DNA of 64,000 nucleotides from Elusimicrobia bacterium GWB2_63_22. GTDB taxonomy: Bacteria > Elusimicrobiota > Elusimicrobia > Elusimicrobiales > UBA9959. Location: NCBI GenBank assembly GCA_001799735.1, contig MGUA01000001.1:30554-94553 (forward strand), given 5' to 3'. Below are positions 8,954 through 38,377 of this stretch, one piece after another (position 1 is the first letter of the stretch; each line of letters opens with the position of its first letter). Below the pieces are notes generated by a model, which saw only the letters and a program-made list of their open reading frames with translations, was not told the DNA's origin and did not search any database. Both the position numbers and the translations under genes were made by a program.

Positions 8954-9019
8954 AGTATAGCCCTTCGCTTGTTCGCTATCTATTCGGAGTTCTGCCCGAA
9001 GCTCTCAGTAGTAATACGG
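8954..9019 (-). promoter_or_regulatory. conserved 66-nt promoter/operator cassette, copy a
   Basis: Gene-strand sequence: CCGTATTACTACTGAGAGCTTCGGGCAGAACTCCGAATAGATAGCGAACAAGCGAAGGGCTATACT. TAGATA, 17 nt, then TATACT. The -10 lies 45 nt upstream of the ATG at 8909. Confidence 0.7.
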
Positions 9020-9076
9020 TGGCAGCGGGGCGGGGCGAACTACGTACTGCCGTTTTTCACGACGGGGAAACGTCCG

Positions 9077-10444
9077 TCACTTCACGCTCATGGTAAAAAG
9101 CACGCGCATGTTGGACTTGGCCGCGGCCGAGTTTATCTTGCCGGGATTAGACTCATAAGTTTCGGGGCGCCTCTCGCCGTAGCCTACGGCGGTGATCCTT
9201 TCCGGCGCGATGCCTTCCGCGATCAGGAACCTGGAAACCGCTATCGCCCTTCTCTCGCTTAACTGCTGGTTATACTCTTCGGTGCCCTGCATCGAGGTAA
9301 AGCCTGCGACGCGCACCGTGGCCTTCGGATTGTCCTTGAGCACCTGGATATTTTTCCTGAGCGCCCGCATCCCGCCCGGCTTAAGCTCCGACTTGTCGAA
9401 GTCGAAATGTGAATCCTTGAGGACGAGTTCCCTGACCACCGGCGCAGGCGCCTGTGCGGCATCCTTGGCCTTTTCCGGGCAATTAAACTTAACGGTCAGG
9501 CTGAGGCGGTGGGAGGAGCCCAGCTCGCCGGCGGATACCAGGGCGTAGTCCAGGGCCATGGAGCGGCTAAAGGTATAGCCCAGACCCATGCTCAACCCGT
9601 CCATGCCGTCCAGCTGGGGATTGGGGAAGTTAACCTGGTAGCCGCCCCGGAGGGCCAGGATACCGGCTTTCTTTTCGATATCCCCGACCAGGTATTCGGC
9701 GCCCAGTTGGACGCGGTCCATGTCGCCGTTCTGCAGCTCCCCTGAAGCCGCCAGGAGCAGCCGCTTGTCCAGGGTCCAGGCCGCGCCCAGGCGCAGGCCC
9801 GAAGCCAGTCCGCTGCCGCCTATCTTGCTGCCTAAATTAACGTTGGAATAGGTAAGGCCCAGGTCCAGGTTAGGGAACAAGGCATACAATACGCCCAGGT
9901 CCGTGGTAAAAGCGTTGTAGCTCTTGAAGGCGAACCGCGACTGATTGCCTTTGAGCACTATACCGCCGGAAAAGCCGGGCAGCAATTCAATACCCCAGCC
10001 CAGGCTGCCGGAAAAATCCCCGGCCTGGTAGTCGCCGGTCGGGACTTCGTTGGCGTCCATGCCGCGGAAACTGCCATAGCTGACGTAGCCAAGAGAGGCT
10101 GCGATACCGCCCAAGGCCCCCCCTTTGCACTCGTCTTTAACTTCTCCCAGGGGCAGGCCGAAGATGACGGTCTCCTGTATAGTCTCGCCAAGGCCGGCAT
10201 TGTGATGAAGGCCGACTTCAGTGCAGCCAAGCCGGCTCAGGCCGGCCGGGTTCCAGAGCAGGGAAGCCGAACCCTGGGGCACCGCCACTACGGCCGAGCC
10301 CATGGCCATGGCCCTGGCCGTTCCCCCCGCCTGCTGCAGGGGCAAAGCTTTGGTGCCGGCCGCGTAATCGGTTTCCACGGCCGCCGCCGGCCCGCAGAGC
10401 AGGGCGGCGGAGACTAAACCTATGCCAATTGATAATATTTTCAT
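9077..10444 (-). CDS. PorV/PorQ-like beta-barrel fused to a C-terminal OmpA domain (paralog of 4391..5842)
   Basis: 455 aa with a signal peptide (..LLCGPAAA/VETDY). PorV-type signature GGTARAMAMGSAVVAVPQGSASLLWNPAGLSR. OmpA domain (..VRVAGFTSMQGTEEYNQQLSERRAIAVSRFL..SNMRVLF). It lies 19 nt downstream of the cargo gene and has a GGGAGAA SD. Confidence 0.8.
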   Translation of the reverse strand: MKILSIGIGLVSAALLCGPAAAVETDYAAGTKALPLQQAGGTARAMAMGSAVVAVPQGSASLLWNPAGLSRLGCTEVGLHHNAGLGETIQETVIFGLPLGEVKDECKGGALGGIAASLGYVSYGSFRGMDANEVPTGDYQAGDFSGSLGWGIELLPGFSGGIVLKGNQSRFAFKSYNAFTTDLGVLYALFPNLDLGLTYSNVNLGSKIGGSGLASGLRLGAAWTLDKRLLLAASGELQNGDMDRVQLGAEYLVGDIEKKAGILALRGGYQVNFPNPQLDGMDGLSMGLGYTFSRSMALDYALVSAGELGSSHRLSLTVKFNCPEKAKDAAQAPAPVVRELVLKDSHFDFDKSELKPGGMRALRKNIQVLKDNPKATVRVAGFTSMQGTEEYNQQLSERRAIAVSRFLIAEGIAPERITAVGYGERRPETYESNPGKINSAAAKSNMRVLFTMSVK

Positions 10445-10463
10445 TTAAATTCTCCCGTCGCTA

Positions 10464-12338
10464 TTAATGCTGCACCACGAACTTCTTAACGTTCGAAACA
10501 TTGGAGCCGCCGTTGTCATAGTTCCGCTCCAGGAGGTAGAGGTAGACTCCGGGCGCGAGCCTGCCGGTATTGAGCGGGGAGTGCTGGCTGCCCGCGATCT
10601 TGTACTCTTCCACTTTGGCCACCAGGTCGCCGATCACGTTATAGACCCGGATCTTGACCCTGCCGGCCGAGGCCATGCAGTACCTGAAGTTGCCGACGGC
10701 CCCTCTGGCCGGAGAAGGAAAGAAGTAGCCCGTCCCGCACAGGTCTTCCCCGGCGGCGAACGAGACCGGGGCGAACTTCGTGACAAAGGCGGTATTTGTG
10801 CCCGTGCCGCGGGTCTGCTGGAACCCGCCCGCCACCAGCGGGAAAGTCCCGGCGAGCGAGCCGGTATAGCCGGTGACATAAATATTCTTAAGGCTGTCCA
10901 GGGCGAGCCCCTGCCCTTTAGTCGGGCCGGTGCCGCCCAGCCAGGTAGAGAAAGCCAGGGGGCCGCCAGTATTGCTCAACACCGTCACGAACGCTTCCGG
11001 CGACCCGATGAAGGTGCTCTGCCCGGCTGCCGGGTTGGAGCCTACGCTGGGGAAGTCCCCGGAGGTAGTATGGCCGGCCACATAGGCGTTGAAAGAGCTG
11101 TCCACCGCGATCCCGGTCGCCCGGTCGTCGGTATTGCCGCCCAGGTAGGTAGCGTACACGCCGTCGCTGTGCCCGCCGCCGTTGCCCATGCGCAGCTTCA
11201 TCACGAAGGCGTCGGGACCGGTAGACATGGTAGTCCGCCCGCCGCCCAGGCCGGGAACGGTAGCGAAGACCGTAGAATTGTCCGGGAAGTCGGCGGAAAA
11301 GGTGTAACCCGTGAGATACACGTCGTTGAGGCTGTCCACCGCTATGGAGTTGCCCTGGTCGTCGTTGGCGCCGCCGATATAAGTCTTGTAGTCAAAGCTG
11401 GACCCGTCGGCCAGCAGCCTGGCCGCGAAAGCGTCGCCTTCGCCGCTGCCGCCGCCCCAGGTAGGCTTAAAAGCCCCCGCGATAGCGGCGTCGGCTAAAC
11501 CGTCCCCGGTGTTGCCGGTAACATAGGCCCTGCCCGAGCCGTCAACGGCTATTCCCCGCCCGTTGGCGAAGCCGGTGCAGCCTAAATAAGTTCCATACAC
11601 CTGCGCGCCGCCCGAGGTGAACTTCATGACGAAAGCCTGGGACGACACGCTGCGCGTGCCCGCGCAGGGAGAAGCGTCCGCAGTGGTAGGGAAAGTAGTA
11701 ATTAAAGCGTTATGAGGCGTATTATCTATAACGGACCCGGCGGTAGCCGTGCCCGTAACGTAAAGGTTCTCGCCCGAGTCTATGGCGATCCCGTTGCCGA
11801 CATCGTCCCCGTCAGCGCCGAACGTAACCCTGAAAGTGGTGGATTGGCCGTCGGCCGCGAAGCCCACAACGAAAGCGTTCAGGCCGGCCAGGACTCCGAC
11901 CGCGCCGGTCATCGGGGCAGAGGCCGGAATGTTCGCGCCGCCGCTGACCGAGCCGGTTATATAGGCCCTGCCAGAAGGGCCGTCCACGGCTATCCCGAGC
12001 CCGGTCTCCTCGGTAGCGCCGCCCAGGTAGGCAGACCAAACTATCGCGGTCCCGGCCGGGTTTATCTTGGTCACGAAGATGTCGTAACCGGCGTTCTTGG
12101 CCGCCTGTATGGGGCCTCCCACCGCGGACGGGAAATCAGGAGAATTTGTGGTCCCGGTCACGTAGGCGTTCTTATTGTCGTCTACGGCGATCGCAAAAGC
12201 CTGGTCCTCTGTAGCGCCGGCACCGCCCAGGAAGCTGGAGTAGGCGATACTCACCGCATGGGCCGGGCCGGTCAGGCCGGCTGTCAGGGTCAGCGCCGCT
12301 ATGGAGCGGCTCAGGAAAATTAACGGGGCAGATCTCAT
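10464..12338 (-). CDS. secreted SBBP beta-propeller-repeat protein with T9SS-type C-terminal sorting domain
   Basis: 624 aa with a signal peptide (..LTGPAHA/VSIAY). Many SBBP motifs (..NAYVTGTTNSPDFP.., ..DVYLTGYTFSADFP.., ..NAYVAGHTTSGDFP..). C-terminal domain YFFPSPARG..VKIRVYNVIGDLVAKV..LAPGVYLYLLE..KKFVVQH. Confidence 0.85.
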   Translation of the reverse strand: MRSAPLIFLSRSIAALTLTAGLTGPAHAVSIAYSSFLGGAGATEDQAFAIAVDDNKNAYVTGTTNSPDFPSAVGGPIQAAKNAGYDIFVTKINPAGTAIVWSAYLGGATEETGLGIAVDGPSGRAYITGSVSGGANIPASAPMTGAVGVLAGLNAFVVGFAADGQSTTFRVTFGADGDDVGNGIAIDSGENLYVTGTATAGSVIDNTPHNALITTFPTTADASPCAGTRSVSSQAFVMKFTSGGAQVYGTYLGCTGFANGRGIAVDGSGRAYVTGNTGDGLADAAIAGAFKPTWGGGSGEGDAFAARLLADGSSFDYKTYIGGANDDQGNSIAVDSLNDVYLTGYTFSADFPDNSTVFATVPGLGGGRTTMSTGPDAFVMKLRMGNGGGHSDGVYATYLGGNTDDRATGIAVDSSFNAYVAGHTTSGDFPSVGSNPAAGQSTFIGSPEAFVTVLSNTGGPLAFSTWLGGTGPTKGQGLALDSLKNIYVTGYTGSLAGTFPLVAGGFQQTRGTGTNTAFVTKFAPVSFAAGEDLCGTGYFFPSPARGAVGNFRYCMASAGRVKIRVYNVIGDLVAKVEEYKIAGSQHSPLNTGRLAPGVYLYLLERNYDNGGSNVSNVKKFVVQH

Positions 12339-12380
12339 TTTAGTTACCTCTTTATTGTTCGGCCTGGTTGGCGTGATTTA

Positions 12381-12447
12381 AGTATAGCCGCGACGCATGT
12401 ACGCTATCTATTAGGAATTCTGCCCGTCCCTCTCGGTAGTATTACGG
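12381..12447 (-). promoter_or_regulatory. conserved promoter/operator cassette, copy b
   Basis: Gene-strand sequence: CCGTAATACTACCGAGAGGGACGGGCAGAATTCCTAATAGATAGCGTACATGCGTCGCGGCTATACT. The -10 lies 43 nt upstream of the ATG at 12338. Confidence 0.7.
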
Positions 12448-12482
12448 AAAGCCAGTCGTTAACAGTCTTCTGTTCCCGTGGG

Positions 12483-14702
12483 TTAGACGCCGCTTAGCGA
12501 ACGCCCGATCTCGACCCAGAGCTTCACATAGTTGGGCGCTCCGGGGGTCGCCGTATTAACGGTAGTGCACATTAAAGTAATGGCCGCTCCTAAGCAAGCG
12601 GCGGACGCGGGAGGCGTCCAGGTCCCCGCCGCGCCGTTAAGCAGCAGCGTGTCGGGAGCGGCGGCGGCAGGGGTGGTGTCGCCAAAACTGATCCCGCCTA
12701 CCGTCCAGGCTGAAGCGACAAAGACCACCAGCTGCCCTTGCCCCACCGCGCCCGAACTGCAGCCGGTGATGGTAGTGACTATGGCGGTGCCGGAGAAGGT
12801 CAGCCCCACGACTCCCGACCCGTCGGCCGCGAAAGAGGTTTCGTTGGTGAGGACCACGGACTGGGACGCGTTAGCATAACCTTTTGCGGTAACAGCGGAG
12901 GTAAAGGTATTCAGCCCGGTAAAGGTCTGGTCGGCCGCCTTCAGGACATCCCCCGTATTCGCCTCTATATTCCCGTTCAATTTCTGGATAGCCTGCAGAA
13001 TCGAATCCGTCGCCGCCACTACCCCGGCGCCCGACACATAGCCGGTAAGCACCTTCGCTATTACAGGCGCGTTCGTAAGGGTGGTCGCGTTGCCTACCGA
13101 AGTAACGTCTCCGGTAAGGTTGGCGTTGGTGGTTACGGTGCCCGCATTGCCGCTGACGCTGCCGACGATGGCGCTGGAGAAGGTCTTTATCCCGCCGATG
13201 GTCTGGTCGCCTATTGTATAGACGCCGTTGGTAACTGTCCCGGCGTTGCCGCTGATGGCAGTCTGGTCGCCGGTGTTGGTGCCGGACAGATTAGCGACCG
13301 CGCCGTTGAACAGCATCGCATTGGTGATGGCGCCGTTGGCGATAGAGGTAGCGTTGCCTACGCTTGTCACCACGCCGGTAAGGTTGGCGTTGGTGGTTAC
13401 GGTGCCCGCATTGCCGCTGACGCTGCCGACTATGGGGCTCGAGAACGTTTTTATCCCGCCGATGGTCTGGTCGCCTATTGTATAGACGCCGTTGGTAACT
13501 GTCCCGGCGTTGCCGCTGATGGTAGTCTGGTCGCCGGTGTTGGTACCGGACAGATTAGCGACCGCCCCGTTGAACAGCATCGCATTGGTAATGGCGCCGT
13601 TGGCTATAGAGGTAGCGTTGCCTACGCTTGTCACCACGCCGGTAAGGTTGGCGTTGGTGGTTACGGTCGCAGCATTGCCGGTTATATTCACCTGGTCGCC
13701 GGTGTTGGTGCCGGACAGATTAGCGACCGCGCCGTTGAACAGCATCGCATTGGTAATGGCGCCGTTGGCGATAGAGGTAGCGTTGCCCACGCTTGTCACC
13801 ACGCCGGTAAGGTCGGCGTTAGTAGTCACGGTGCCCGCGTTGCCGCTGACGCTGCCGACGATGGCGCTGGAGAAGGTCTTTATCCCGCCTATGGTCTGGT
13901 CGCCCACGGTGTAGACGCCGTTGGTGACCGTCCCGGCATTGCCGCTTACTGCGGTCTGGTCGCCGGTGTTGGTGCCGGCCAGGTTCCCGGCGAAGATATT
14001 TCCGCTGAAGGTCGCCCCGGCCAGATTGGCCTTCAGGTTCAGCGCGGCCTGCTGCAGCGTGGACACCGGCTTATCGGCGTCCGAGGTGTTGTTCACGCTG
14101 CCGAGATTCAGCTGGCCCGCGGTAATACCGGTCAGCAGGGAGCCGTCGCCGCTCGCCGACAGCTTGCCGTTGAAAATGTTCCAGTCTACGGAGGTAAGAT
14201 AGCCATCCGAAGCCGCGCCAGCCGCCGGCTTACTGGTGATCGAGGCCCAAGCGGCGCCCTGCGCCCAGGCGGCGGTGCCGCTGTTCACGGAGTAAGCCGC
14301 TGTGGCGCTATTGAGAGAGTATAAGGAGTAAGCCGAAGAAACCACCCGGTAGCGGGGCAGCATTTCGCTGTCGGCCCCGACCGTCACCCCCAGCCAATAG
14401 GCGTTCGAGAAGGGTATCCCGAACGGAGTGACGAGTCCCAGCATGACGCTGTAAATACCGTCACTGTCCGGAGTAACGTTCTGGGTTTCAGACCAAAGGG
14501 ACGCGCCGCCCGAGGCGGCCGCATAGAACTTGAACACCATCGGGACGGAACCGGTGATCGCGGTGCCGGCCGGGTCGGTAAGCTTTCCCTGGAAATTTAT
14601 CAGTTCCGGCACAGCCGCCAGCGCCGGCGTTGCCCCGCCAGCTAAAAGCAGCAGCACGGCCAGCGCCGCGCCTGAAGATATTGTTTTTATATTGCTTTTC
14701 AT
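12483..14702 (-). CDS. secreted tail-fibre-like / adhesin-like repeat protein
   Basis: 739 aa with a signal peptide (..GGATPALA/AVPE). N-terminal ELINFQGKLTDPAGTAITG.. head, as in many fibre-like proteins. Central near-identical A/B repeats (see repeat feature). No T9SS-type CTD. Last gene of the PorV operon. Confidence 0.7.
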   Translation of the reverse strand: MKSNIKTISSGAALAVLLLLAGGATPALAAVPELINFQGKLTDPAGTAITGSVPMVFKFYAAASGGASLWSETQNVTPDSDGIYSVMLGLVTPFGIPFSNAYWLGVTVGADSEMLPRYRVVSSAYSLYSLNSATAAYSVNSGTAAWAQGAAWASITSKPAAGAASDGYLTSVDWNIFNGKLSASGDGSLLTGITAGQLNLGSVNNTSDADKPVSTLQQAALNLKANLAGATFSGNIFAGNLAGTNTGDQTAVSGNAGTVTNGVYTVGDQTIGGIKTFSSAIVGSVSGNAGTVTTNADLTGVVTSVGNATSIANGAITNAMLFNGAVANLSGTNTGDQVNITGNAATVTTNANLTGVVTSVGNATSIANGAITNAMLFNGAVANLSGTNTGDQTTISGNAGTVTNGVYTIGDQTIGGIKTFSSPIVGSVSGNAGTVTTNANLTGVVTSVGNATSIANGAITNAMLFNGAVANLSGTNTGDQTAISGNAGTVTNGVYTIGDQTIGGIKTFSSAIVGSVSGNAGTVTTNANLTGDVTSVGNATTLTNAPVIAKVLTGYVSGAGVVAATDSILQAIQKLNGNIEANTGDVLKAADQTFTGLNTFTSAVTAKGYANASQSVVLTNETSFAADGSGVVGLTFSGTAIVTTITGCSSGAVGQGQLVVFVASAWTVGGISFGDTTPAAAAPDTLLLNGAAGTWTPPASAACLGAAITLMCTTVNTATPGAPNYVKLWVEIGRSLSGV
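13075..13985 (-). repeat. in-frame tandem coding repeats (33-aa A unit + 55-aa B unit; 165/264-nt periodicity)
   Basis: The protein reads A-B-B-A-B-A-B(partial). A = SGNAGTVTNGVYT(V/I)GDQTIGGIKTFSS(A/P)IVGSV. B = SGNAGTVTTNA(D/N)LTG(V/D)VTSVGNATSIANGAITNAMLFNGAVANLSGTNTGDQT. Antisense-frame ORFs restart identically at 13228, 13492 and 13921, giving offsets of 264 and 429 (= 264+165) nt. Confidence 0.85.
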
Positions 14703-14730: not shown

Positions 14731-15678
14731 CTATTCCGCGCCCGGCACTCCGAACTCTATCCCCAGCGAGATCCGGTTAACGCTCCCCAGGTCGGTAAAA
14801 GAATTCCACGCGTAATCGATCCGGCAATCTTTCCATTTAAGGCCCAGCCCGGCGGTCAGGCCCGAAAGCGCGCCCAGTTCCTTGATTGTGTCGTCCTTAT
14901 AACCGGCCCGCGCCGCCACTACCACCGTTCCGAACGCGCGGGCGTACTCGGCCCCGGCGTGGATATTGATCTCCCTCTCCGTGTAGTTAAGATCGGACAC
15001 GACCAGCAGATTTTTATGCAGCTGCAGGGCGCCCCCCGCGCGAACCGTCACCGGCAGGGGATCCTCCTCCGCCACGTAACCGGCGTTCGTGCCGAGATTC
15101 TGCACCGACAGCCCCAGGCCCAGCCGGCGGCCCCACGGCTTAAAACCGCTGTAGAGAGCGCCGATGTCGGCGGCAAAGGAATGCGCGGACTCCTCTTCGA
15201 TGCGCGAGGAGATGAATTTAAGATTCGCGCCCAGCGCCAGCCTGTCAAAGCCGCGGGCATAGGAAACCAGCCCCATCACCTCCGACATGTCATAGCTATC
15301 CGAGAGGCGCAGGCCGGTGTTATCGGCTTTCTGGATATCTCCCGTGTTAAGAACGTTGAACGCCGCGCCTACGGTGCCGCCCTTCAGGGGCTGGGCGCAA
15401 GCCAGGTTGGAATAAGTAATATCCCCGAACCACTGGGCGTGCGTTACGGATAATTCCCGGCGGGCCAGGCTGGCCAGGCCGGCAGGATTCCAATAGACAG
15501 AGTTAACGTCGCCGGCCACGCCCGCAAAAGCCTCGCCCATAGCCGCCGGCCGCGCGCCTACGCCCAGCTGCAGGAACTGGAACGCGCTCGTGCCCAGCGC
15601 GCTCTGCGCCGCAGCCGGGCAGGGAGAGCACAGCAGCCCCAGGGCCGCCGCCGTCAGGATCTTTCTTGGAGTCGTCAT
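14731..15678 (-). CDS. PorV/PorQ family outer-membrane beta-barrel protein (stand-alone)
   Basis: Start moved to the ATG at 15678 (MTTPRKILTAAALGLLCSPCPAAA/QSALG), which overlaps the upstream stop as ATGA. Signature SAFQFLQLGVGARPAAMGEAFAGVAGDVNSVYWNPAGLASL. 315 aa. Confidence 0.8.
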   Translation of the reverse strand: MTTPRKILTAAALGLLCSPCPAAAQSALGTSAFQFLQLGVGARPAAMGEAFAGVAGDVNSVYWNPAGLASLARRELSVTHAQWFGDITYSNLACAQPLKGGTVGAAFNVLNTGDIQKADNTGLRLSDSYDMSEVMGLVSYARGFDRLALGANLKFISSRIEEESAHSFAADIGALYSGFKPWGRRLGLGLSVQNLGTNAGYVAEEDPLPVTVRAGGALQLHKNLLVVSDLNYTEREINIHAGAEYARAFGTVVVAARAGYKDDTIKELGALSGLTAGLGLKWKDCRIDYAWNSFTDLGSVNRISLGIEFGVPGAE

Positions 15679-16259
15679 CTTATCACCGCGAATTTGCCTT
15701 TCGCCTTGCTGCCGTCGGGCGAGGTCATGAAATAAAGGTAAACACCGCTCGCCAGTTTCTGCCCGTCGCCATTCGTCACGTTCCATTCGTAATAGTCGAC
15801 CGCGCTGTCGGTCTTGTGCAGCTCGGCCACCCGGCGGCCGGTTATCGCGAAAATTGTGATCCTGGTTTGCGCCGGCAGGTGCTTAAAGGTCATCCGGGCG
15901 GCCTGGAAGCCGCCCGGGCTGTTAGGCTTGAAGGGATTGGGGTAGACGTAGGCGTCGTTCAGATTGGGCGCCGAAAGCGACGGCGCCGCCGCGGGCAGCG
16001 TTGCGAAGGCTCCCGAAATAACATAGTTTGCGCTTTGCGCTCTGCCGGACGCGGCCTGCCCCAGCACCCCGGTCCGCACCTGGTAGCCCGGCGAAACCGT
16101 GCTGGCGCCCCCGTTTACCACCGCGGGCCTGGAAAGGCTGTACTGGGAACTTACCATCACGCCGGCGCCGACCAGCGAGCCGGTCAGCAGGACCACAGCC
16201 GCCGACAGCCGGCTGCCCCGCAGCAGCGGCCTGGTTTTAGGTTCGGAGATACCTGTCAT
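15675..16259 (-). CDS. small protein consisting of a signal anchor plus a T9SS-type C-terminal sorting domain
   Basis: 194 aa. N-terminal anchor (RLSAAVVLLTGSLVGAGVMV). C-terminal domain AYVYPNPFKPNSPGG..ITIFAITGRRVAEL..WNVTNGDGQKLASGVYLYFM..GKFAVIR. The ATG lies 6 nt after the TATACT of cassette c, so the mRNA is possibly leaderless. Confidence 0.7.
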   Translation of the reverse strand: MTGISEPKTRPLLRGSRLSAAVVLLTGSLVGAGVMVSSQYSLSRPAVVNGGASTVSPGYQVRTGVLGQAASGRAQSANYVISGAFATLPAAAPSLSAPNLNDAYVYPNPFKPNSPGGFQAARMTFKHLPAQTRITIFAITGRRVAELHKTDSAVDYYEWNVTNGDGQKLASGVYLYFMTSPDGSKAKGKFAVIR

Positions 16260-16265
16260 GGAACA

Positions 16266-16331
16266 AGTATAGCCCCTGCCAGAAACGGTATCTATTCGGA
16301 ATTATGCCCTGCGGGCTAGGTACTATTACGG
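16266..16331 (-). promoter_or_regulatory. conserved promoter/operator cassette, copy c
   Basis: Gene-strand sequence: CCGTAATAGTACCTAGCCCGCAGGGCATAATTCCGAATAGATACCGTTTCTGGCAGGGGCTATACT, followed by TGTTCC and then the ATG at 16259. Confidence 0.7.
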
Positions 16332-16445
16332 AAAACCGGATAATACCTATAACCCCGCGTACAACTCCGCATAGCGGCGGGCCGCCCTTAAGAGTAAGGT
16401 ATATAGAGAACAAACCGGGGCAAGAACCCCGAACCAAGGAGACCT

Positions 16446-16901
16446 ATGATGAAAATACTGTTAACTTTAGTTTGCCTGCTCGCCGCGGGCTTAAACCCGG
16501 CGGCGGCCCAGACTTCGGGAGCCATCGGGGCCGGCGTGGTCGTCGGAAATCCGACCGGGCTCACCGCCAAGTTCTGGCTCAGCGAAGGGCACGCCCTGGA
16601 TCTCGGTCTGGGGTTCAGCGAACACGTCTCCATCTACGGCGACTACCTGTGGCACAGCTGGAGCGCGCTCCCGCAGCCCGCGGAAGGCAGGCTTCCCGGT
16701 TACCTGGGCCTGGGCGTCCAGATAGGGGATTCTTCCCGCCACGACAGCGGCCTGGGGCTGCGCGCGGTCGCGGGCCTGGCCTACTGGCTGCCGCGCAATC
16801 CCGTGGAGATCTTCCTGGAGGCGGTCCCGGTGCTTGAGTTGTCCGACGATACCGGCCTGCACCTGAGCGCCGCCCTTGGCGTGAGGTACTATTTCAAATG
16901 A
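16446..16901 (+). CDS. small outer-membrane beta-barrel protein
   Basis: 151 aa. AAGGAG SD. Signal peptide (MMKILLTLVCLLAAGLNPAAA/QTS). Gly/aromatic beta-strand pattern ending ..LGVRYYFK. Confidence 0.7.
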   Translation: MMKILLTLVCLLAAGLNPAAAQTSGAIGAGVVVGNPTGLTAKFWLSEGHALDLGLGFSEHVSIYGDYLWHSWSALPQPAEGRLPGYLGLGVQIGDSSRHDSGLGLRAVAGLAYWLPRNPVEIFLEAVPVLELSDDTGLHLSAALGVRYYFK

Positions 16902-30077: not shown

Positions 30078-30088
30078 GGCGGAGCGGT

Positions 30089-30733: not shown

Positions 30734-30747
30734 GTCGTTGTCCCCTT

Positions 30748-31332
30748 TCAAAAAGAATAATTCACCGCGGCGGTTAACATGTAACCTTTGTCGGTTAAAT
30801 TCCTGCCCAGGGGATGCGCCAGGTCCTGGGAATTTATATCCTCGGTCCACAGGTAGCGGTAGGAGCCCCCGAAAGACCACGCGGTATTAAGGAAGTACTC
30901 CACTCCCCCGCCCGCATGGGGCCCGAAACGAAAATCCGTCCTGTCCGCCGGGGCGTAGACGTGGGTGTAATACCAGCCGCCCCCCGCCAGGATATATGGC
31001 GCGAGCCTGTAGCCGTGCGGCATTAGATAGGCGAGGACCGACAGCTGGATCGGTATCACGTCCACTTTCGCTTCGGGGAAACTTTCCTGGCGCAGGTCCG
31101 CCGATAACTCCAGGGCCCACCGCCGCGTAAGATGATAGCGCGCCTGCGCCCCTTCCGAGAACTCGCCGCTGCCGGCGCCCCTGCTGCGGTAATAGGCGGC
31201 GCGCCCCCCGAGAGACAGGCCGGCCCGCGGACCGCGGCTCTCTTCGGGTTCGGCTTGCGCGCAGGCCGCCGCGGCGGGCAAAAGCCCGGCCGCCAGGATA
31301 ATAACGGCGGTCAAGTGTTTATAAAAAGTCAT
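30748..31332 (-). CDS. small (8-strand-type) outer-membrane beta-barrel protein
   Basis: Start moved to the ATG at 31332 (MTFYKHLTAVIILAAGLLPAAAACAQA/EPE). 194 aa, ending ..MLTAAVNYSF. Paralog of 37629..38213. The 5' part of the 326-aa track ORF is an alternative frame of the upstream REC gene. Confidence 0.75.
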   Translation of the reverse strand: MTFYKHLTAVIILAAGLLPAAAACAQAEPEESRGPRAGLSLGGRAAYYRSRGAGSGEFSEGAQARYHLTRRWALELSADLRQESFPEAKVDVIPIQLSVLAYLMPHGYRLAPYILAGGGWYYTHVYAPADRTDFRFGPHAGGGVEYFLNTAWSFGGSYRYLWTEDINSQDLAHPLGRNLTDKGYMLTAAVNYSF

Positions 31333-31379
31333 AGATAGATCCCTGCTCCGCAGCCCGGTATACCAGGTGCCGCAAATAG

Positions 31380-31445
31380 AGCATACCGCATGGGGCAGGC
31401 CCTGCCAATGCGGAATTATACCCGGGCTGGAGTGGAATATTACGG
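31380..31445 (-). promoter_or_regulatory. conserved promoter/operator cassette, copy f
   Basis: Gene-strand sequence: CCGTAATATTCCACTCCAGCCCGGGTATAATTCCGCATTGGCAGGGCCTGCCCCATGCGGTATGCT. TTGGCA, 17 nt, then TATGCT. The -10 lies 48 nt upstream of the ATG at 31332. Confidence 0.65.
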
Positions 31446-31475
31446 AGGAGGAGGAAGGCTGCGGCAGGAGGCGCG

Positions 31476-31931
31476 CTACCTGGTTTTTTTGCGGGGGCTC
31501 TTCTTCCCGGCGGGAACGGCTTGGTCCATGCCGGCGGGGAAATACAGGCCGCCCCGGGAGACCTGCACAATGGCGTCGAACAGTTCCGAAGTGGGCTGGC
31601 TCTTCATAACATAGCCGCGGGCGCCGCTGCGCGCCATCCGCACCACGTATTCCTCGCTGGAATGGATGCTGAAAGCGATGATCCTGGACCTGGGGACGAG
31701 CCGGCGCAGGTTGTCGGCGACTTCCCACCCGACCATGGAAGGCAGGTTGACGTCCAGGACTATCACTTCGGGCGCCAGCTTCTGTACCTTGCGAAAGGCC
31801 TCGGGGGCGTCGGCGGCATCCCCCACCACCTCTATATCCCGGCTAGCCAGGTAGGTACGCACGCCTTCCCGCACGATCGGATGGTCGTCGATAAGGAAAA
31901 CTCTGATCTTTTTTTGTTTTTCTTTTTTCAT
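31476..31931 (-). CDS. single-domain (REC-only) response regulator, NarL-family receiver without HTH
   Basis: 151 aa from the ATG at 31931 (MKKEKQKKIRVFLIDDHPIVREGV..). Collinear with the two flanking LuxR regulators up to ..VSRGGLYFPAGM. It then ends in a short basic tail (DQAVPAGKKSPRKKTR) instead of the HTH. Confidence 0.75.
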   Translation of the reverse strand: MKKEKQKKIRVFLIDDHPIVREGVRTYLASRDIEVVGDAADAPEAFRKVQKLAPEVIVLDVNLPSMVGWEVADNLRRLVPRSRIIAFSIHSSEEYVVRMARSGARGYVMKSQPTSELFDAIVQVSRGGLYFPAGMDQAVPAGKKSPRKKTR

Positions 31932-31998
31932 ACCCGGCTGAAGGCGGCCTGACAATGCTGCGGCAGGGCGGCAAACACCTCAATACTGCCCAGGCGTT

Positions 31999-32682
31999 TT
32001 ACTGCTTGGGTTTATCCGGCAGGCCCAGCGAGGTCAGGCCGTGCTGGATGGCGTACTTCGTAAGGCCGGCGATGGTCATAATACCGAGCTTATGCGAGAG
32101 GTGCTCGCGGTGCGTTTCGGCGGTCCTCACGCTTATTCCCAGTTTCCGGGCCACCTCTTTATTGGCCAGGCCCTCGGCCAGGAGGGCCAGCACTTCGCGC
32201 TCGCGCACGGTCAGCACCACCGTGTTCGCCTCGTCGGGGGACGGCTTGGACTCCGGCGAAAGGATGGCGTCTGTCATAGACGCGGGGAAATAGATGCCGC
32301 CCTGGTAGACGTGCTTGATGGCCTCCACCAGCTTGGCCGTGGGCGCGTCCTTGGTCACGTAGCCATGGGCGCCGCAGCGGGCCATCCGCACCACGTGCTC
32401 CTGGCTGTCATGCACGCTGAAAGCGATGATCTTGGCGCGGGGGGCCGTCTGGCGCAGCTTGCGGGCCAGCTCGCCTCCGTCGAGGGAAGGCAGGTTGACG
32501 TCCAGGACGATAACCTCGGGCGCCAGCTTCTTCACCTTGCGCAGGGCCTCCGCGGCGTCGGCGGCTTCCCCCACCAGCAGGACCGCCGACTGGGTGGCCA
32601 GGAAGGAGCGCACCCCCTCGCGCACTACGGGGTGGTCGTCCACCAGTAATACTTTAATTTTGGGCTCACTTTTCTTTTTCAT
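31999..32682 (-). CDS. NarL/LuxR-family response regulator (REC + HTH), cognate of the upstream kinase
   Basis: 227 aa. The ATG at 32682 overlaps the HK stop (ATGA). REC (KIKVLLVDDHPVVREGV..VIVLDVNLP..GYVTKD) and HTH (LTVREREVLALLAEGLANKEVARKLGISVRTAETHREHLSHKL). Confidence 0.9.
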   Translation of the reverse strand: MKKKSEPKIKVLLVDDHPVVREGVRSFLATQSAVLLVGEAADAAEALRKVKKLAPEVIVLDVNLPSLDGGELARKLRQTAPRAKIIAFSVHDSQEHVVRMARCGAHGYVTKDAPTAKLVEAIKHVYQGGIYFPASMTDAILSPESKPSPDEANTVVLTVREREVLALLAEGLANKEVARKLGISVRTAETHREHLSHKLGIMTIAGLTKYAIQHGLTSLGLPDKPKQ

Positions 32683-35600
32683 AAGGCGTCTCCATCCTGT
32701 CGCGTTAAGGGAACGCGGACCGTGAGAGTGGTCCCGCCCCCCGGAGTGGAATCCAGTTCTATCGTGCCGCCGGCCAATTCTGCCCTCTCGCGCATGCTCC
32801 CCAGGCCGATGCCATTGCCGGCCGCCTGCCGGCTGGCGCCGGGGGTGAACCCGACCCCGTTGTCGCGCACGCTTAAAACTATTTTCTTCCCTTCCCGGGA
32901 GAGGGTGACGGCGGCCACGCTGGCCTTGGAATGTTTCCCCACATTATTGAGCGCCTCCTGCGCGATGCGGAACAGCGCCAGTTCCAGCTCGGGAGAGATC
33001 TGCGAAGGAACGTTCCCGGCCTTAAGCGTGACAGGTACTCCCGCCCGCTCCTTGAACTGCCGGCAAAGCGTGCGCAGGGCCGGCTCCAGGCCCAGGTCCA
33101 CCAGCTCCGAAGGCATCAGGTTCTGGGAGACGCGGCGGATCTCCGAAATGGCGTGGCTCAGGAACCCGCCCACTTTCGAAATGTTCTCCGCGTCTTTTTT
33201 GTTCAAAGCCATTTCCCCGGGCAGGGACTCCAGCCTGAACTTAATGCCTGAAAGTATCTGGCCGACGCCGTCATGAAGCTCCCGGGAAAGGCGCTTGCGC
33301 TCCGTTTCCTGGGCGGAGATCACGCGCGAGTGCAGGCGGTGCAGCTCCCGCTCGGCGCCCTTGCGCTCCGTGATATCCCGTTCGGTGGTGGCGACTTCCA
33401 CCGGCCGCCCCCTGTCATCGCGCAGGACGGTTACCGTCAGCAGCACGTCCAGGGTCCGGCCGCCTTTTGTGCAGCGCTGGGCCTCTATGGGAGCCGCCGA
33501 GACCCGGACCAGTTCCCGCGCCTTTATAAGCTTATTTTTCGGCATCAGCCGCCTGATGCTCATCGCCAGGGCTTCCTTTTCGCTATAGCCGTACATCTTC
33601 TGCGCGCCTTTGTTCCAGGCGAGTATGCGGTCCTTGAGGTCGCAGATAATGACCGCGTCGTTGGAATCCAGCACGGAATTGGCCAGCCGCAGGGTGTTTT
33701 TCTCCGCGAGCTTGCGCTCCCGCTCGGCCTGCTTCTGCTCCGTAATGTCGCGTTCCGTCTCGGCGACTTCCACCGGGCGGCCCTTCTCATCGCGCAGCAC
33801 GGTTACGGTCAGCAGCACGTCCAGGACCCGGCCGTCCCTGGCCCTGCGCCGGGTCTCTATCGGCCCCGCCGAAACACGGACCAGATCCTTAGCCCTCATC
33901 CGCGTCTTTTCCGGCATCAGGCGGCTGATATTCATCCCCAGGGCTTCTTTTTCGCTATAGCCGTACATCCGCTGCGCGCCTTTATTCCAGGCGGTGATGC
34001 GGCCCTTCAGGTCTATGATGATGACGGCGTCGTTGGAATCCAGCACCAGCGTGGCCAGCCGCAGCAGGTTCTTTTCCGCGAGTTTCCGGTCCTGTATATC
34101 CACCAGCGCCAGCACGGCGCCTTCAGTCCTGCTTTTTTCGGCCTTGTTCTTGTCGGTCCGGTAGGGCCGGATAAAAAGGTAATACCACTTGCCCCGCGTA
34201 TCGGCGACTTCCAGCTTCTGGACCTGGCCGGTCTTGATCACGTTTAGGAGCCGCTGTTTTAGATCGGGGACGAGCAGGGGCAGTTTGACCTCCGTGATAT
34301 GCCGCCCTATCTTGTCCGGGGAGAGGTCCAGAGCTTCGGCCGCCGGGGGCGTGAAGCGGCGGATGGTCAGGTCGGCCCCCAGCAGGACGACGGGGATGTC
34401 GATATTGGCCAGCAGGTTGGAGAAATCGCTGTTGGAGCGATTCAGGATCTGGTTCGCGTCTCCCAGCTCCTCGGTAGACGTGATAAGTTCCTCGTTGGCG
34501 GACTGCAGCTCTTCCTTGGAGGTTTCGAACTCTTCGTTGACGCTCTGCAGTTCTTCGTTGTTGGAAAGCAGCTCCTCGTTGGAGGATTTAAGCCGCGAAT
34601 TGGTAGACTCCTGCTCCTCTATAATGGCCTTTAGATGTTCCGCGGAGACCGCCAGGTCCTCTTTAAGCTGGACGACGCGGCGGCTGTCTTTTTCCCCCGG
34701 CGCCGCGGCGGCAGGCTTCTGGCCGGGAGCGGGGGCTAACAGTTCCTCGAACAGGATGAGGAAATGACTGGAGCCGTTGACCGGCAGCACCTCGACCTGG
34801 ATACGCCCGGGCCCGCCCCCGGGTTTAGGCAGGGATATCTCCTTGCGCACGGCGCAGGCGGTTTTTTTAGCCACGTGGATGGCCGTCCGCAGTTCCAGCA
34901 GCAGCCCGCTTGAGGCCATGCGGCGCAGGTTCAGGCTCGGGCGGCCGGGCGCGGGCCGCAGGTAGGCAGAAATATTTCCCAGGAACCGCAGTATCTCCAG
35001 TTCGCCGTTCACGATGACGCCGTTGGGGATATAGCGCGCGGGCAGGATACTGTCCAGCTCTCCCCGCAGGTCGGCTTCCTCCTGCGCCTGTTTTACCTGC
35101 CCCCGCTCCCCGTAGTAGGGGAGCTTAAAGGCGGGCTCCGTTTCCAGGAAACGGCCGGACTTAAAGAAATCGAGGCGCGACGCGGAAGCCGTCGTCCGCT
35201 CGGAAAAGACTTTTCTCTTCGCTTTCACAGGGGAAAAACCGCCGAAGAATTCCCCGGTGGTCTCCGAGTGCCCGAGCATGAGGATGCCATGGGGCTTTAA
35301 AGCGTATTGGAAGATCCGCATGGCTTTTTCCTGCAGGGCCGGGCCAAGGTAGATCAGGAGGTTCCTGCAGCTGATCAGGTCCAGGTTGGTGAAAGGCGGG
35401 TCCTGCACCAGGTTCTTGGCCGCAAAGACGCAGCGCTCGCGGATGGCCGGCACTATGCGGTAGCCGTCCCTGGTTTCAGTAAAGAAGCGCCGCAGCCGCT
35501 CGGGCGAAACGTGCGCCTTGATCTTTTTAGGATAAAGCCCCGCGCGGGCTTTTTCTATAACGGCGGGGTTCACATCCGTGGCGAAGACCTGGAAGGGCGT

Positions 35601-36605
35601 CTGGGAAACTTTGGGCCCCAGGAATTCCACCAGGTTAATGGCGTGGGAATAGACCTCTTCCCCGGTAGAGCAGCCCGGGACCCAGATGCGTATCGGTTCA
35701 TTGGCCCTCCTGTTCTTGAGCAGGCGAGGGTAGATAGTTCTCTTTAATTCCCTGAAGGATTCCGGTTCCCGGAAGAACGACGTCACGCAGATCAGGATGT
35801 CGCGGTAGAGCTGCTCCAGTTCGGCGGCGTCCGAGGCCAGCAGGCGGAAGTATTTCTCAGGGTCATGGATACGCCGCAGCGCCATGCGCCTCTGGATGCG
35901 CCGGCGCAGGGTGCTGCGCTTATAAAGTTCGAACTCTACTCCCTTGGCGGTGCGCAGCAGGTCCAGGATGCCGGTCAGCGGGTCTTCCGCCGGTTTGGCC
36001 GCCAGTCCTGCCCCGGCCGGGCCCGGCCCGCCAGGGCGGGCGGGGCTGATCCTTTTACCTATCTCTGCCGGGGAAAGAATGAAGTCCACCGAACCGGCCT
36101 CTACCGCGGAATGGGGCATGCTGAGGTGGGAGGCTGTTTTCTCGCTCTGCGCGAAAGTGGTCCCGCCGCCAGCCTTGATCGCCTTCAGGCCTTCGGTCCC
36201 GTCCGACCCCTCGCCCGACAGGAGTACGCCTATGGCGTTGGTTTTTTGGTCCGCGGCCAGGGAATAAAAAAAACTGTCTATGGGGTTGCGCCAGTCGGCC
36301 TTGTGCCCGAATTCAGAAAGGCGGAGAACGCCCTGTTTTATCTGCATCGCCCGGTTGGGCGCTATGATGTAGATCCGGTCGGGCTGGACCCGCTCCCCGT
36401 TTTTAACTTCGCTGACCGGGAGTTTAGTACTGTGCGCCAGGATCTCGGCCAAATGACTCTCATATTGGGGCGCAAGATGGGGCACCAGCACGAACGCTAT
36501 GCCTGGCTGTGCCGGCAGAGCGCTCAGGAGCTCCTCGAAAGCCTTAAGCCCGCCGGCGGAAGCGCCGACAGCGGCGATCCGGAAAGTCGCGGTTTTTTTT
36601 CGCAT
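32679..36605 (-). CDS. CheB-CheR-PAS-PAS-HisKA_3-HATPase multidomain sensor histidine kinase
   Basis: About 1308 aa from the ATG at 36605; the track ORF starts at a TTG at 36629. Domains seen: CheB-like methylesterase N-terminus (RIAAVGASAGGLKAFEELL); CheR-like methyltransferase (IRIWVPGCSTGEEVYS); coiled coil (SNEELLSNNEELQSVNEEFETSKEELQSANEEL); two PAS; NarX-type H-box (LSRELHDGVGQILS); ATPase (GNGIGLGSMRERAELAGG). Confidence 0.85.
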   Translation of the reverse strand: MRKKTATFRIAAVGASAGGLKAFEELLSALPAQPGIAFVLVPHLAPQYESHLAEILAHSTKLPVSEVKNGERVQPDRIYIIAPNRAMQIKQGVLRLSEFGHKADWRNPIDSFFYSLAADQKTNAIGVLLSGEGSDGTEGLKAIKAGGGTTFAQSEKTASHLSMPHSAVEAGSVDFILSPAEIGKRISPARPGGPGPAGAGLAAKPAEDPLTGILDLLRTAKGVEFELYKRSTLRRRIQRRMALRRIHDPEKYFRLLASDAAELEQLYRDILICVTSFFREPESFRELKRTIYPRLLKNRRANEPIRIWVPGCSTGEEVYSHAINLVEFLGPKVSQTPFQVFATDVNPAVIEKARAGLYPKKIKAHVSPERLRRFFTETRDGYRIVPAIRERCVFAAKNLVQDPPFTNLDLISCRNLLIYLGPALQEKAMRIFQYALKPHGILMLGHSETTGEFFGGFSPVKAKRKVFSERTTASASRLDFFKSGRFLETEPAFKLPYYGERGQVKQAQEEADLRGELDSILPARYIPNGVIVNGELEILRFLGNISAYLRPAPGRPSLNLRRMASSGLLLELRTAIHVAKKTACAVRKEISLPKPGGGPGRIQVEVLPVNGSSHFLILFEELLAPAPGQKPAAAAPGEKDSRRVVQLKEDLAVSAEHLKAIIEEQESTNSRLKSSNEELLSNNEELQSVNEEFETSKEELQSANEELITSTEELGDANQILNRSNSDFSNLLANIDIPVVLLGADLTIRRFTPPAAEALDLSPDKIGRHITEVKLPLLVPDLKQRLLNVIKTGQVQKLEVADTRGKWYYLFIRPYRTDKNKAEKSRTEGAVLALVDIQDRKLAEKNLLRLATLVLDSNDAVIIIDLKGRITAWNKGAQRMYGYSEKEALGMNISRLMPEKTRMRAKDLVRVSAGPIETRRRARDGRVLDVLLTVTVLRDEKGRPVEVAETERDITEQKQAERERKLAEKNTLRLANSVLDSNDAVIICDLKDRILAWNKGAQKMYGYSEKEALAMSIRRLMPKNKLIKARELVRVSAAPIEAQRCTKGGRTLDVLLTVTVLRDDRGRPVEVATTERDITERKGAERELHRLHSRVISAQETERKRLSRELHDGVGQILSGIKFRLESLPGEMALNKKDAENISKVGGFLSHAISEIRRVSQNLMPSELVDLGLEPALRTLCRQFKERAGVPVTLKAGNVPSQISPELELALFRIAQEALNNVGKHSKASVAAVTLSREGKKIVLSVRDNGVGFTPGASRQAAGNGIGLGSMRERAELAGGTIELDSTPGGGTTLTVRVPLTRQDGDAL
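33336..34079 (-). repeat. tandem duplication of a 124-aa PAS module (2 x 372 nt) inside the kinase gene
   Basis: Copy 1 is 34079->33708 (AEKNLLRLATLVLDSNDAVIIIDLKGRITAWNKGAQRMYGYSEKEALGMN..). Copy 2 is 33707->33336 (AEKNTLRLANSVLDSNDAVIICDLKDRILAWNKGAQKMYGYSEKEALAMS..). The corresponding Ala codons are exactly 372 nt apart. Confidence 0.85.
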
Positions 36606-36634: not shown

Positions 36635-36672
36635 AGTATATAGCAAATGCATATATAAAGCAATGCGGATCT
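36635..36672 (-). promoter_or_regulatory. partial copy of the cassette (core promoter only) upstream of the CheB-CheR-HK operon
   Basis: TATACT (36640->36635), 20 nt, then TCCGCATTG (36669->36661). This is the same register and 9/9 identity with copy f. The distal CCGTAATACTACC element is absent. Confidence 0.4.
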
Positions 36673-37628: not shown

Positions 37629-38213
37629 CTAAAACAGCAGGTTCAGCGCGATCGTGACCATCGAACCGGCGTCCTGGTAATCCTTGTCCAGCGCGGCGGC
37701 GTCGTGGGACATTATGCTTTCCAGCCAGACGTACCGGTAGGCCCCGTCCAGGGACAGGGAACTGCCCAGCATTACCTCGAGGCCGGCTCCGGCATGCAGG
37801 CCGAACCGCGAGGTATCGTGCTCATAGCCGAGCGGACCGTCCACACTGGAATAATACAGGCCCGCCCCCCCGAGCAGGTAAGGGCTGACCGCGCTGCCTG
37901 GCGTAAGGTACGCCAGCAGGCTCGCCTGGACAGGATAAGTTTTAATGGTAGTGAGAGGGCCGAAGTCGTTCTTGAGGTAATCTATCGACGCCTCGAACCC
38001 GAATGCGGACGACAAGTGCAGCTTGAGCTGGGCGCCGGGAGCCCAGGCCCCGTCGTCAGCGTCCTTGGGGGTGGCATACGTGGCCCTGGGGCCTATCGAC
38101 AGCACCCTGTCCCCTACCCCGCCCTCCGCGAAGGCGGCCGCCTGCAAACCCAGCAGCAGCGCCGCCATCGCGAACAAAGCCCCGGCCTTTTTAGTGCGAT
38201 TATTGTTTTTCAT
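37629..38213 (-). CDS. small (8-strand-type) outer-membrane beta-barrel protein (paralog of 30748..31332)
   Basis: 194 aa with a signal peptide (..LLLGLQAAAFA/EGG), ending ..MVTIALNLLF. Shares ..LLAYL(T/M)P..PY(L/I)LGG(A/G)G.. and ..HAG(A/G)G(L/V)E.. with the paralog. Confidence 0.8.
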   Translation of the reverse strand: MKNNNRTKKAGALFAMAALLLGLQAAAFAEGGVGDRVLSIGPRATYATPKDADDGAWAPGAQLKLHLSSAFGFEASIDYLKNDFGPLTTIKTYPVQASLLAYLTPGSAVSPYLLGGAGLYYSSVDGPLGYEHDTSRFGLHAGAGLEVMLGSSLSLDGAYRYVWLESIMSHDAAALDKDYQDAGSMVTIALNLLF

Positions 38214-38259
38214 ATTATAACTCCTTGATCTGTCGTCCGCCGTTCAGCGGCTTCCTTAA

Positions 38260-38325
38260 AGCATAAGCCTTATCCGGCGCCCGCAGATATTAGGAATTAT
38301 CCCGTCCCGCTCGGTAGTATTACGG
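38260..38325 (-). promoter_or_regulatory. conserved promoter/operator cassette, copy g
   Basis: Gene-strand sequence: CCGTAATACTACCGAGCGGGACGGGATAATTCCTAATATCTGCGGGCGCCGGATAAGGCTTATGCT. The -10 lies 47 nt upstream of the ATG at 38213. Confidence 0.65.
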
Positions 38326-38377
38326 TAGGTTCCCGTAGAAATCCGCATATCGGCTTCGGGGAGCCAAAGGGTATAGT
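38311..38377 (+). promoter_or_regulatory. divergent partial cassette sharing the distal element of copy g; candidate promoter of the YtxH-like/BON genes
   Basis: Plus strand: TCGGTAGTATTACGGTAGGTTCCCGTAGAAATCCGCATATCGGCTTCGGGGAGCCAAAGGGTATAGT. GTAGAAATCCGCATATC resembles the core GGCAGAATTCCTAATAG. TATAGT at 38372-38377 lies 70 nt upstream of the ATG at 38448. Confidence 0.4.

Follow-up and report, generated by a model that had tools for sequence, protein, structure and literature searches.

A repeated promoter cassette as the probable signature of a lineage-specific envelope and stress regulon in Elusimicrobiales

The locus and its repeated cassette

The stretch of DNA analysed here (the window) comprises 64 kb of Elusimicrobia bacterium GWB2_63_22 (contig MGUA01000001.1, positions 30,554 to 94,553). 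Genes for SBBP-repeat surface proteins, OmpA-domain proteins, outer-membrane protein (OMP) beta-barrels and BON-domain proteins are found in it together with an island encoding a CheB-CheR-PAS-HisKA_3 histidine kinase and NarL/LuxR-type response regulators, and a Pfam scan largely confirmed the labels previously given to the genes. The same cassette of about 72 bp recurs upstream of genes of these kinds. From its anatomy, its placement and its conservation in related genomes, the cassette probably serves as the common promoter and operator of a lineage-specific envelope and stress regulon in Elusimicrobiales, one that is activated via a response regulator.

A first-pass annotation of the window had listed seven copies of this cassette, all on the minus strand and in a fixed register. 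When a profile built from these seven copies was searched against the window with nhmmer, all seven were recovered as full copies at the positions first listed, with E values of 1.8e-14 to 2.5e-20, and their alignment contained 23 invariant columns (Table 1). The best further profile match in the 64 kb had an E value of 0.003. All copies were intergenic, lying in short gaps, and each faced a start codon. The distance from the -10 box to the start codon was about 40-63 nt, in keeping with the 40-62 nt first reported, with copy c at 6 nt instead of the 7 nt originally counted.

Anatomy of the cassette

Positions within the cassette are given relative to a predicted +1 set 7 nt past the -10 hexamer. 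The consensus of 51 distinct copies, the seven of the window and 44 from the related loci described below, was TTCCGTAATACTACCtAG-N7-GGGCAkAAyTCCkAATAG-N20-21-(GGC)TATACTTA, which resolves into three blocks. Block 1 spans -74 to -57, and its conserved positions make up a perfect 10-bp palindrome, GTAnTAnTAC, centred at -65.5, the n's of which are its two variable columns. Block 2 (GGGCAkAAyTCCkAATAG) spans -50 to -33 with its centre at -43.5, 22 bp or about two helical turns from that of block 1, and retains the G-x-A-N4-T-x-C skeleton of block 1 (GCA kAAy TCC). In canonical copies the two blocks agree at 5 of 8 conserved positions, and their resemblance, which rests in part on the intermediate variants CGTATAATTCCG and CGTAGGATTACG, may be regarded as suggestive. 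The third block is an extended -10, (G)GCTAT(A/G)CTTA. Within it TAT occupies -12 to -10, with T-12, A-11 and T-7 present in 50-51 of the 51 copies (T-7 in all 51), C-8 in 48 (giving TATACT or TATGCT), A or G at -9 in 42 and 9, G-14 in 35, C-13 in 29 (G in 12), T-6 in 37 and A-5 in 33.

The spacing between the boxes was invariant but for 1-nt indels, and the distance from the TCC of block 2 to the -10 box was fixed at 26-27 nt across every variant class, the spacers themselves being unconserved. Information content was 0.1-0.6 bit per position in the spacers and 1.5-2 bits in the blocks, about 84 bits in total, figures that are inflated for blocks 1 and 2 because the search pattern had fixed some of their bases. 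The -35 region was weak: just T-35 and G-33 were conserved (TAGATG or TAGCTG, 3/6 matches to the consensus), both supplied by the 3' end of block 2, and a standard sigma70 scan recognised copy f only, as TTGGCA-17-TATGCT. Downstream of the -10 box, the predicted +1 was an A in 37 of the 51 copies and -1 a pyrimidine in 38, and past +1 conservation dropped to background.

Within the window, block 2 searched by itself gave 8 matches as against 2.3 ± 1.4 in dinucleotide shuffles. Block 1, with three mismatches allowed, gave 14 as against 9.4, which is not significant alone, and its sites with 0-2 mismatches were exactly the cassettes. The generalised pattern of block 2, N17-23 and TAnnnT was found at 8 sites, with 0.02 expected from shuffles; copy g was missed by this pattern because of its 1-nt deletion, and when it is counted the window holds nine promoters of the cassette family. 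No isolated block 1 or block 2 site was found in the window with per-block position-weight matrices. The one additional block-2-like match, at 24968-24990 (+), lies within an Omp85 gene and looks like chance.

Two further identities were considered for the conserved blocks and rejected. A sigma54 promoter was defined by GG at -24 and GC at -12, 10 bp apart (TGGCAC-N5-TTGC); GGCAkAAyTCCkAA has AA where the GC is needed, and such a promoter would not account for the conserved TATACT that follows 26 nt further on. The likeness of block 1 to a phage T7 promoter (TAATAC...TAG) was judged coincidental.

Copy c and its relatives offer strong, if indirect, support for the predicted start site. In five genomes (the window and loci L009, L010, L008 and L004) the ATG of the downstream gene lies exactly 6 nt past TATACT and has no Shine-Dalgarno sequence, and the encoded proteins of 191-194 aa have conserved residues from about position 8 onwards; a ferritin-like gene in locus L005 shows the same arrangement, with its ATG 6 nt past the -10. 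The conserved A of the cassette would here be the A of the ATG itself. As the position of the -10 box predicts an mRNA starting at that A, the transcripts of the copy c family and of the L005 ferritin-like gene are predicted to be leaderless.

As a separate observation, the sequence TCA(C/G)GCCAAC is found at about +1 to +12 of several canonical copies that precede unrelated genes (8940-8950, 12365-12376 and 29996-30007 on the minus strand, and also in loci L009, L020, L016 and L024). Its presence in the initial transcribed region is unexplained by the promoter model.

Distribution and regulon content

One genome from each of 185,579 species was scanned with the exact pattern CCGTANTANTACY-N9-10-GGNANAANTCCNNAT, which specifies about 20 bases, does not include the -10 box, and was estimated to give about 1-2 chance matches across all of these genomes. 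The scan returned 28 loci in 14 metagenome-assembled genomes (MAGs), with only a few strict matches per MAG. All 28 belonged to MAGs that were either without a label or assigned to Elusimicrobia, Elusimicrobiales or Elusimicrobiaceae, and locus GC ranged from 48 to 63%. With profile matches at E<1e-6 taken as full-length copies, the 205 kb of these loci contributed the 44 additional sequences. The window itself aligned with a contig of 'Elusimicrobia bacterium GWD2_63_28' at 85-87% nucleotide identity. Literature searches for a promoter or operator motif, or for transcriptional control, in Elusimicrobia found nothing relevant.

The first open reading frames downstream of the 51 copies fell into recurrent families: triple-BON, SBBP-type and OMP beta-barrel proteins (six each), the leaderless 19x-aa protein and GAF-PAS-HisKA proteins (five each), and P-type cation ATPases, DUF6627 proteins and receiver-LuxR regulators (three each), with single cases of a ferritin-like protein, GDPD, Omp85, a histidine kinase and an endonuclease/phosphatase-family protein. 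Copy d had orthologues in loci L015, L022, L029, L001, L026, L007 and L003, and copy e in L015, L003, L013 and L026. The same gene families stood behind the cassette across at least 14 Elusimicrobia MAGs, with the blocks conserved one by one. The first-pass statement that the targets are always envelope or secreted proteins holds for most of them; the GAF-PAS-HisKA protein behind copy e and, elsewhere, the P-type ATPases, the ferritin-like protein, GDPD and the histidine kinase do not conform to it.

The retention of a -10 box that had not been part of the search, together with conservation that ends at the predicted +1, has the character of a promoter signature and not of a transcribed element. 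These two features and the recurrence in at least 14 MAGs lend support to the original proposal of a dedicated regulon promoter in which a regulator site is fused to a sigma70-type core. It is hardly credible that the repeat is instead a mobile or repetitive extragenic palindromic (REP)-like element, or a structured RNA leader, and not a promoter. The many copies within 30 kb and the palindromic block 1 would suit such an element, but the spacers are unrelated among copies, terminal repeats are lacking, orientation and start-codon distance are fixed, and copies occupy orthologous positions in genomes whose GC ranges from 48 to 63%. The few strict matches per MAG and the end of conservation at the predicted +1 also speak against a REP. 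Spread irrespective of gene context, named in the first pass as the mark of such a repeat, was looked for and not seen, and the comparison with related genomes returned conservation instead. RNAalifold found no consensus RNA structure in 50 copies on either strand, and the cassettes gave no match to Rfam at gathering thresholds, nor any at E<=10 across 28100-31500.

Among the targets, features resembling those of a type IX secretion system (T9SS) were observed at 5871-8909, 10464-12338 and 14731-16259 (all minus strand), namely Por_Secre_tail/CHU_C-type C-terminal domains and a PorV-like barrel. The T9SS labels given in the first pass (two SBBP-CTD cargos, a CTD miniprotein and PorV) are matched in Pfam, yet at 17.8-26.7 bits for Por_Secre_tail and 22.9 bits for PorV, all below the Pfam gathering cut-off of 27.

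Divergent and variant promoters

Two plus-strand relatives of the cassette lie back to back with copies c and g, and are designated c' and g'. What had been described as a divergent half-copy opposite copy g turned out to be a complete promoter, g', with a block 2 and a -10 box of its own and a palindrome shared with copy g; the centre of this single palindrome is 53.5 nt from either -10 box. The second, c', which precedes an OMP/DUF4833/catalase operon, had been overlooked. Its profile match had an E value of 0.003, and loci L009, L010 and L028 have a like arrangement. Divergent variants were also present opposite copies in L006, L018, L002, L010, L028 and L009. In this class block 2 is retained (as GCGTAyAAyTCCkmATAg), block 1 is reduced to its right half, and the -10 hexamers are assorted but still lie 26-27 nt from TCC.

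The opposite strand of the cassette was also considered as an antisense promoter, GGAATT-N17-TAGTAT. This is unlikely, as in co-directional copies such a promoter would yield merely antisense RNA into the upstream gene.

A small conserved hairpin of the form GGGG-CAAGnn-CCCC was noted about 9 nt past the predicted start of the divergent transcripts, at 16412-16427 (+) in the window and also in L009, L006, L010, L028 and L002. Some of the changes in its stem keep the pairing, and it may serve to stabilise the 5' end or to bind a protein.

The regulator island and the proteins that may read the cassette

The candidate regulator of the cassette is a NarL/VraR-type protein encoded under cassette f, and its closest solved relatives are VraR (E 1e-27), ChrA, NarL, EvgA and DevR (E 2e-20). 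A paralogue encoded just behind the kinase gene shares with it the identical recognition helix RTAETHREHLSHKL. A third receiver protein of the island stops exactly where a helix-turn-helix (HTH) domain would start, and its stop codon and block 1 of cassette f are 28 nt apart; the island therefore encodes two LuxR-type regulators and not the three that were first counted. Mutual identity among the three receiver proteins is 60-66%. The receiver-only protein may possibly be a truncated duplicate, or else a decoy, phosphate sink or dominant-negative partner.

The candidate cognate sensor is the CheB-CheR-PAS-HisKA_3-HATPase kinase. Its N-terminus MRKKTATFRIAAVGASAGGL is conserved and starts at ATG 36605, so that this codon is probably the true start and not the TTG at 36629 chosen by the open reading frame finder. 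A core-only copy of the cassette had been proposed upstream of the gene, at 36635-36672. This sequence fell below threshold and was rejected as a member of the family, the upstream region having an ordinary promoter and no cassette; ordinary promoters likewise precede the orthologues of the kinase gene in L033, L034 and L039 (TATAAT in L034).

A metagenome scan based on an alignment of the regulator returned 80 loci that fell into two groups separated by a sharp gap in identity. The 12 loci with regulators of 62-83% identity contained 16 cassette matches in 64 kb, all on the regulator strand, whereas the 68 loci with regulators of at most 45% identity contained none in 438 kb. At least 9 of the 12 orthologous loci had a cassette of the f type ahead of the regulator gene or of its operon with the OMP gene, and the others were cut off by contig ends or held the kinase-linked paralogue. 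Variants of this type precede the orthologous operon in L015, L003, L013, L029, L033, L034, L039, L040 and others. This recurrence of the cassette before the regulator operon supports the autoregulation of the NarL/LuxR regulator that had been suggested from copy f alone. Across the sequences compared, the LuxR-type regulator appears as the sole recurrent DNA-binding candidate in the regulon. Its recognition helix is nearly invariant across lineages, so that little covariation between helix and box could show.

An operator role for the two blocks could also be imagined in the opposite sense, with blocks 1 and 2 serving as operators of a repressor, or of two factors, and the regulon being switched on by derepression. 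The overlap of block 2 with the -35 region, the palindromic form of block 1, typical of many repressors, and the different sequence signatures of the two blocks are compatible with this reading, which was nonetheless rated as very doubtful. The -35 is weak (TAGATG, with copy f alone passing the sigma70 scan), so that the core would be poor even if unrepressed, a repressor would not usually sit at -65.5, the spacing of the boxes at -65.5/-43.5 fits known activators of the NarL family, and no further DNA-binding gene recurs in the regulon.

A different reader of the core is envisaged if a dedicated alternative sigma factor (group 2 or 3, RpoS-like) recognises the extended -10 and perhaps block 2, with block 1 as an accessory operator and the LuxR-type regulator as a member or co-regulator of the regulon. 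This was considered unlikely, and the evidence is divided. The extended -10 consensus of E. coli sigmaS is KCTAYRCTTAA, with C-13 (PMC5650638; PMC3923258), and it agrees with the cassette logo at each position, including R-9 and C-8. A degenerate -35 is likewise found at sigmaS promoters, and the BON/OsmY-like, catalase and Dps/ferritin-like targets recall the sigmaS regulon. In 79 non-cassette upstream regions from the same genomes, TATAAT occurred 9 times in the forward and once in the reverse orientation and TAAAAT 10 and 3 times, whereas TATACT was unbiased (6 forward, 5 reverse); the TATACT signature would thus be specific to the regulon, although this sample of ordinary promoters is small. 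No linked sigma factor gene was detected, either with Pfam or in a phmmer search with region 2 of E. coli RpoD against six-frame translations of the window and the 28 cassette loci (205 kb). The divergent variants that carry block 2 have assorted -10 boxes (TATGGT, TAAAGT, TACTAT, TATCCT), which misfit a strict sigma-specific -10. The promoters of sigmaS are without two fixed upstream boxes, and the resemblance may be convergent or simply that of a sigma70-family -10. RpoS proper is not known outside Proteobacteria and spirochaetes, which was likewise counted against this alternative.

Table 1. Cassette copies, variant promoters, regulatory genes and other features of the 64-kb window
Feature	Position	Strand	Components and remarks	Downstream genes
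Copy a	8951-9022	-	Block 1 9003-9021; block 2 8976-8998; extended -10 GGGCTATACTTAA 8951-8963	DUF7948/SBBP/TIG protein 5871-8909 (Pfam); probably also OmpA-domain gene 4391-5842
Copy b	12377-12451	-	Block 1 12431-12449; block 2 12404-12426; -10 12378-12390	SBBP-repeat protein 10464-12338, then OmpA-domain gene 9077-10444
Copy c	16264-16334	-	Block 1 16315-16333; block 2 16288-16310; -10 16263-16275	194-aa membrane-anchored protein (ATG 16259), PorV-like 14731-15786, 739-aa gene 12483-14702
Copy d	28164-28236	-	Block 1 28217-28235; block 2 28190-28212; -10 28165-28177	Triple-BON protein 27342-28106
Copy e	30009-30079	-	Block 1 30061-30079; block 2 30034-30056; -10 30009-30021	GAF-PAS-PAS-HisKA protein without ATPase domain 28257-29972
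Copy f	31376-31448	-	Regulator-type variant with left half of block 1 only (CCGTAATATTCC); better -35 (TTGGCA); -10 TATGCT	OMP_b-brl 30748-31332 and response regulator-LuxR gene 30089-30733
Copy g	38256-38329	-	Block 1 38309-38327; block 2 38283-38305 (1-nt deletion); -10 TATGCT 38260-38265	OMP_b-brl 37629-38213
c'	16337-16400	+	Half of block 1 (ATAATACCTAT); block 2 GCGTACAACTCCGCATAG 16357-16374; candidate -10 TAAGGT 16395-16400	OMP_b-brl 16446-16901, DUF4833, catalase 17511-18971, alpha/beta hydrolase, PLA1
g'	38314-38377	+	Palindrome GTAGTATTAC 38314-38323, shared with copy g; block 2 38334-38350; -10 TATAGT 38372-38377; profile E 0.03	104-aa protein 38448-38762, triple-BON protein 38842-39609
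Candidate regulator	30089-30733	-	NarL/VraR-type, receiver and GerE/LuxR HTH; under cassette f	
Paralogous response regulator-LuxR	31999-32682	-	65% identical to candidate regulator; overlaps end of upstream kinase gene	
Receiver-only paralogue	31476-31955	-	No HTH; 66% identical to receiver domain of 30089-30733	
Candidate cognate sensor	32679-36605	-	CheB-CheR-PAS-HisKA_3-HATPase kinase	
Lower-GC stretch	40000-50000		47-57% GC (about 62% otherwise)	
2'-dG-II purine riboswitch aptamer	48356-48426	-	85 bits, E 8.5e-21	Radical-SAM gene 47288-48406
tmRNA gene (ssrA)	50318-50669	-	Tag peptide ANSNELAWAHA	

Other features of the window

Apart from the cassettes, a transfer-messenger RNA (tmRNA) gene was found next to about 10 kb of lower GC, a stretch that encodes a sigma54-activator response regulator, a histidine kinase-like ATPase, SBP_bac_5, radical-SAM, DUF3592 and HTH_3 proteins, and that has the appearance of a genomic island that entered next to ssrA. 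Within it, a 2'-dG-II purine riboswitch aptamer was identified directly upstream of the radical-SAM gene, with a candidate -10, GCTAGACT, just upstream of the aptamer.

Discussion

The cassette is probably a previously undescribed promoter of a lineage-specific regulon built on a familiar plan, that of tandem response-regulator boxes joined to a sigma70-family core, and the mechanism is of no new kind. In the scheme that would account for it, the CheB-CheR-PAS-HisKA_3 kinase would phosphorylate the NarL/LuxR-type regulators of the same island, dimers of which would occupy the palindromic distal box and, cooperatively, the proximal box abutting the -35. The bound regulator would then bring the sigma70-family holoenzyme to an otherwise poor promoter. 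At the regulator operon, the variant cassette, with its half block 1 and better -35, would allow basal expression followed by positive feedback. Cooperative, phosphorylation-dependent binding is proposed because the geometry, the weak -35, the sharing between divergent promoters and the autoregulation match precedents in this family of regulators. The start sites, the protein that binds the boxes, the direction of regulation and the sigma factor used are inferences.

One of these precedents is DevR (DosR) of M. tuberculosis, whose primary and secondary boxes, at -63.5 and -42.5, keep a helical phase that is essential and serve divergent promoters (PMC3177182). DevR is likewise an autoregulated member of the NarL subfamily, and its stress regulon numbers tens of genes. 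At tgs1-Rv3131 its boxes at -63.5/-42.5 compare with -65.5/-43.5 in the cassette, the proximal box abuts the -35, and one pair of boxes serves divergent promoters, as at copies g and g'. The two systems differ in that the Dev box is 18-20 bp long with essential G5 and C7 and is unrelated to GTAnTAnTAC, and in that secondary Dev boxes show little conservation, in contrast to the asymmetric and nearly invariant block 2. The -10 of the cassette is also rigidly conserved, and the regulator of the island is only a distant homologue of DevR. In Firmicutes, VraR binds a conserved site, R1, and a phosphorylation-dependent site, R2, on its own promoter (PMC6612188), and LiaR binds a consensus site and an adjoining secondary site (PMC4482077). 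These systems share with the cassette an envelope-related regulon, the regulator's own operon as a target, and a primary site with an adjacent secondary site, the latter needing phosphorylation or oligomerisation. They belong to another phylum, recognise another sequence and are served by LiaF/LiaS-type sensors in place of the CheB-CheR-PAS kinase, and no 72-bp cassette repeated near-verbatim at each target has been described for them.

Several points weigh against activation through the LuxR-type regulator. The start-site positions and the binding of the regulator are predictions from the sequences of uncultured organisms, and the co-occurrence of regulator and cassette is confounded with phylogeny, both being confined to one lineage. 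The conservation of blocks 1 and 2 is affected by ascertainment, 31 copies having been found with the pattern that fixed those bases, and the resemblance of block 2 to block 1 is statistically uncompelling alone. Block 2 is as conserved as block 1, is asymmetric and has invariant bases outside the shared skeleton (AA, TCC, AAT); in this it departs from DevR and VraR, whose secondary sites are degenerate, and it could point to a different reader, whether a second factor, region 4 of the sigma factor or the C-terminal domain of the RNA polymerase alpha subunit. Finally, the near-invariant C-8 and the GC at -14/-13 are unexplained by an activator and hint at a dedicated sigma factor. A variant of the scheme that would accommodate these last features is one in which a putative RpoS-like (group 2) sigma factor, or a lineage-specific determinant of RNA polymerase, reads the sigmaS-type -10 together with block 2 as an extended -35 or UP-like element, the NarL-type regulator acting via block 1 only; this was judged distinctly unlikely.

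With activation via the response regulator as the preferred explanation, the value of the cassette lies in the access that it gives to the biology of the Elusimicrobia, which are almost wholly uncultured. It provides a high-specificity handle, of roughly 80 bits, with which the whole regulon may be delimited from metagenomic sequence alone, a regulon that takes in proteins of the BON/OsmY-like and OMP beta-barrel kinds, SBBP surface proteins bearing T9SS-like tails, P-type ATPases, a ferritin-like protein and a catalase operon. A candidate pathway is offered for its control, consisting of the CheB-CheR-PAS-HisKA_3 kinase, two paralogous LuxR-type regulators and a putative receiver-only decoy. 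The predicted start sites and leaderless mRNAs could be checked in existing groundwater metatranscriptomes, and for future genetics in this lineage the cassette may serve as a portable inducible promoter. If the sigma-read variant were true, the cassette would represent a new and unusually information-rich promoter class of about 80 bits and would extend sigmaS-like logic outside the Proteobacteria.

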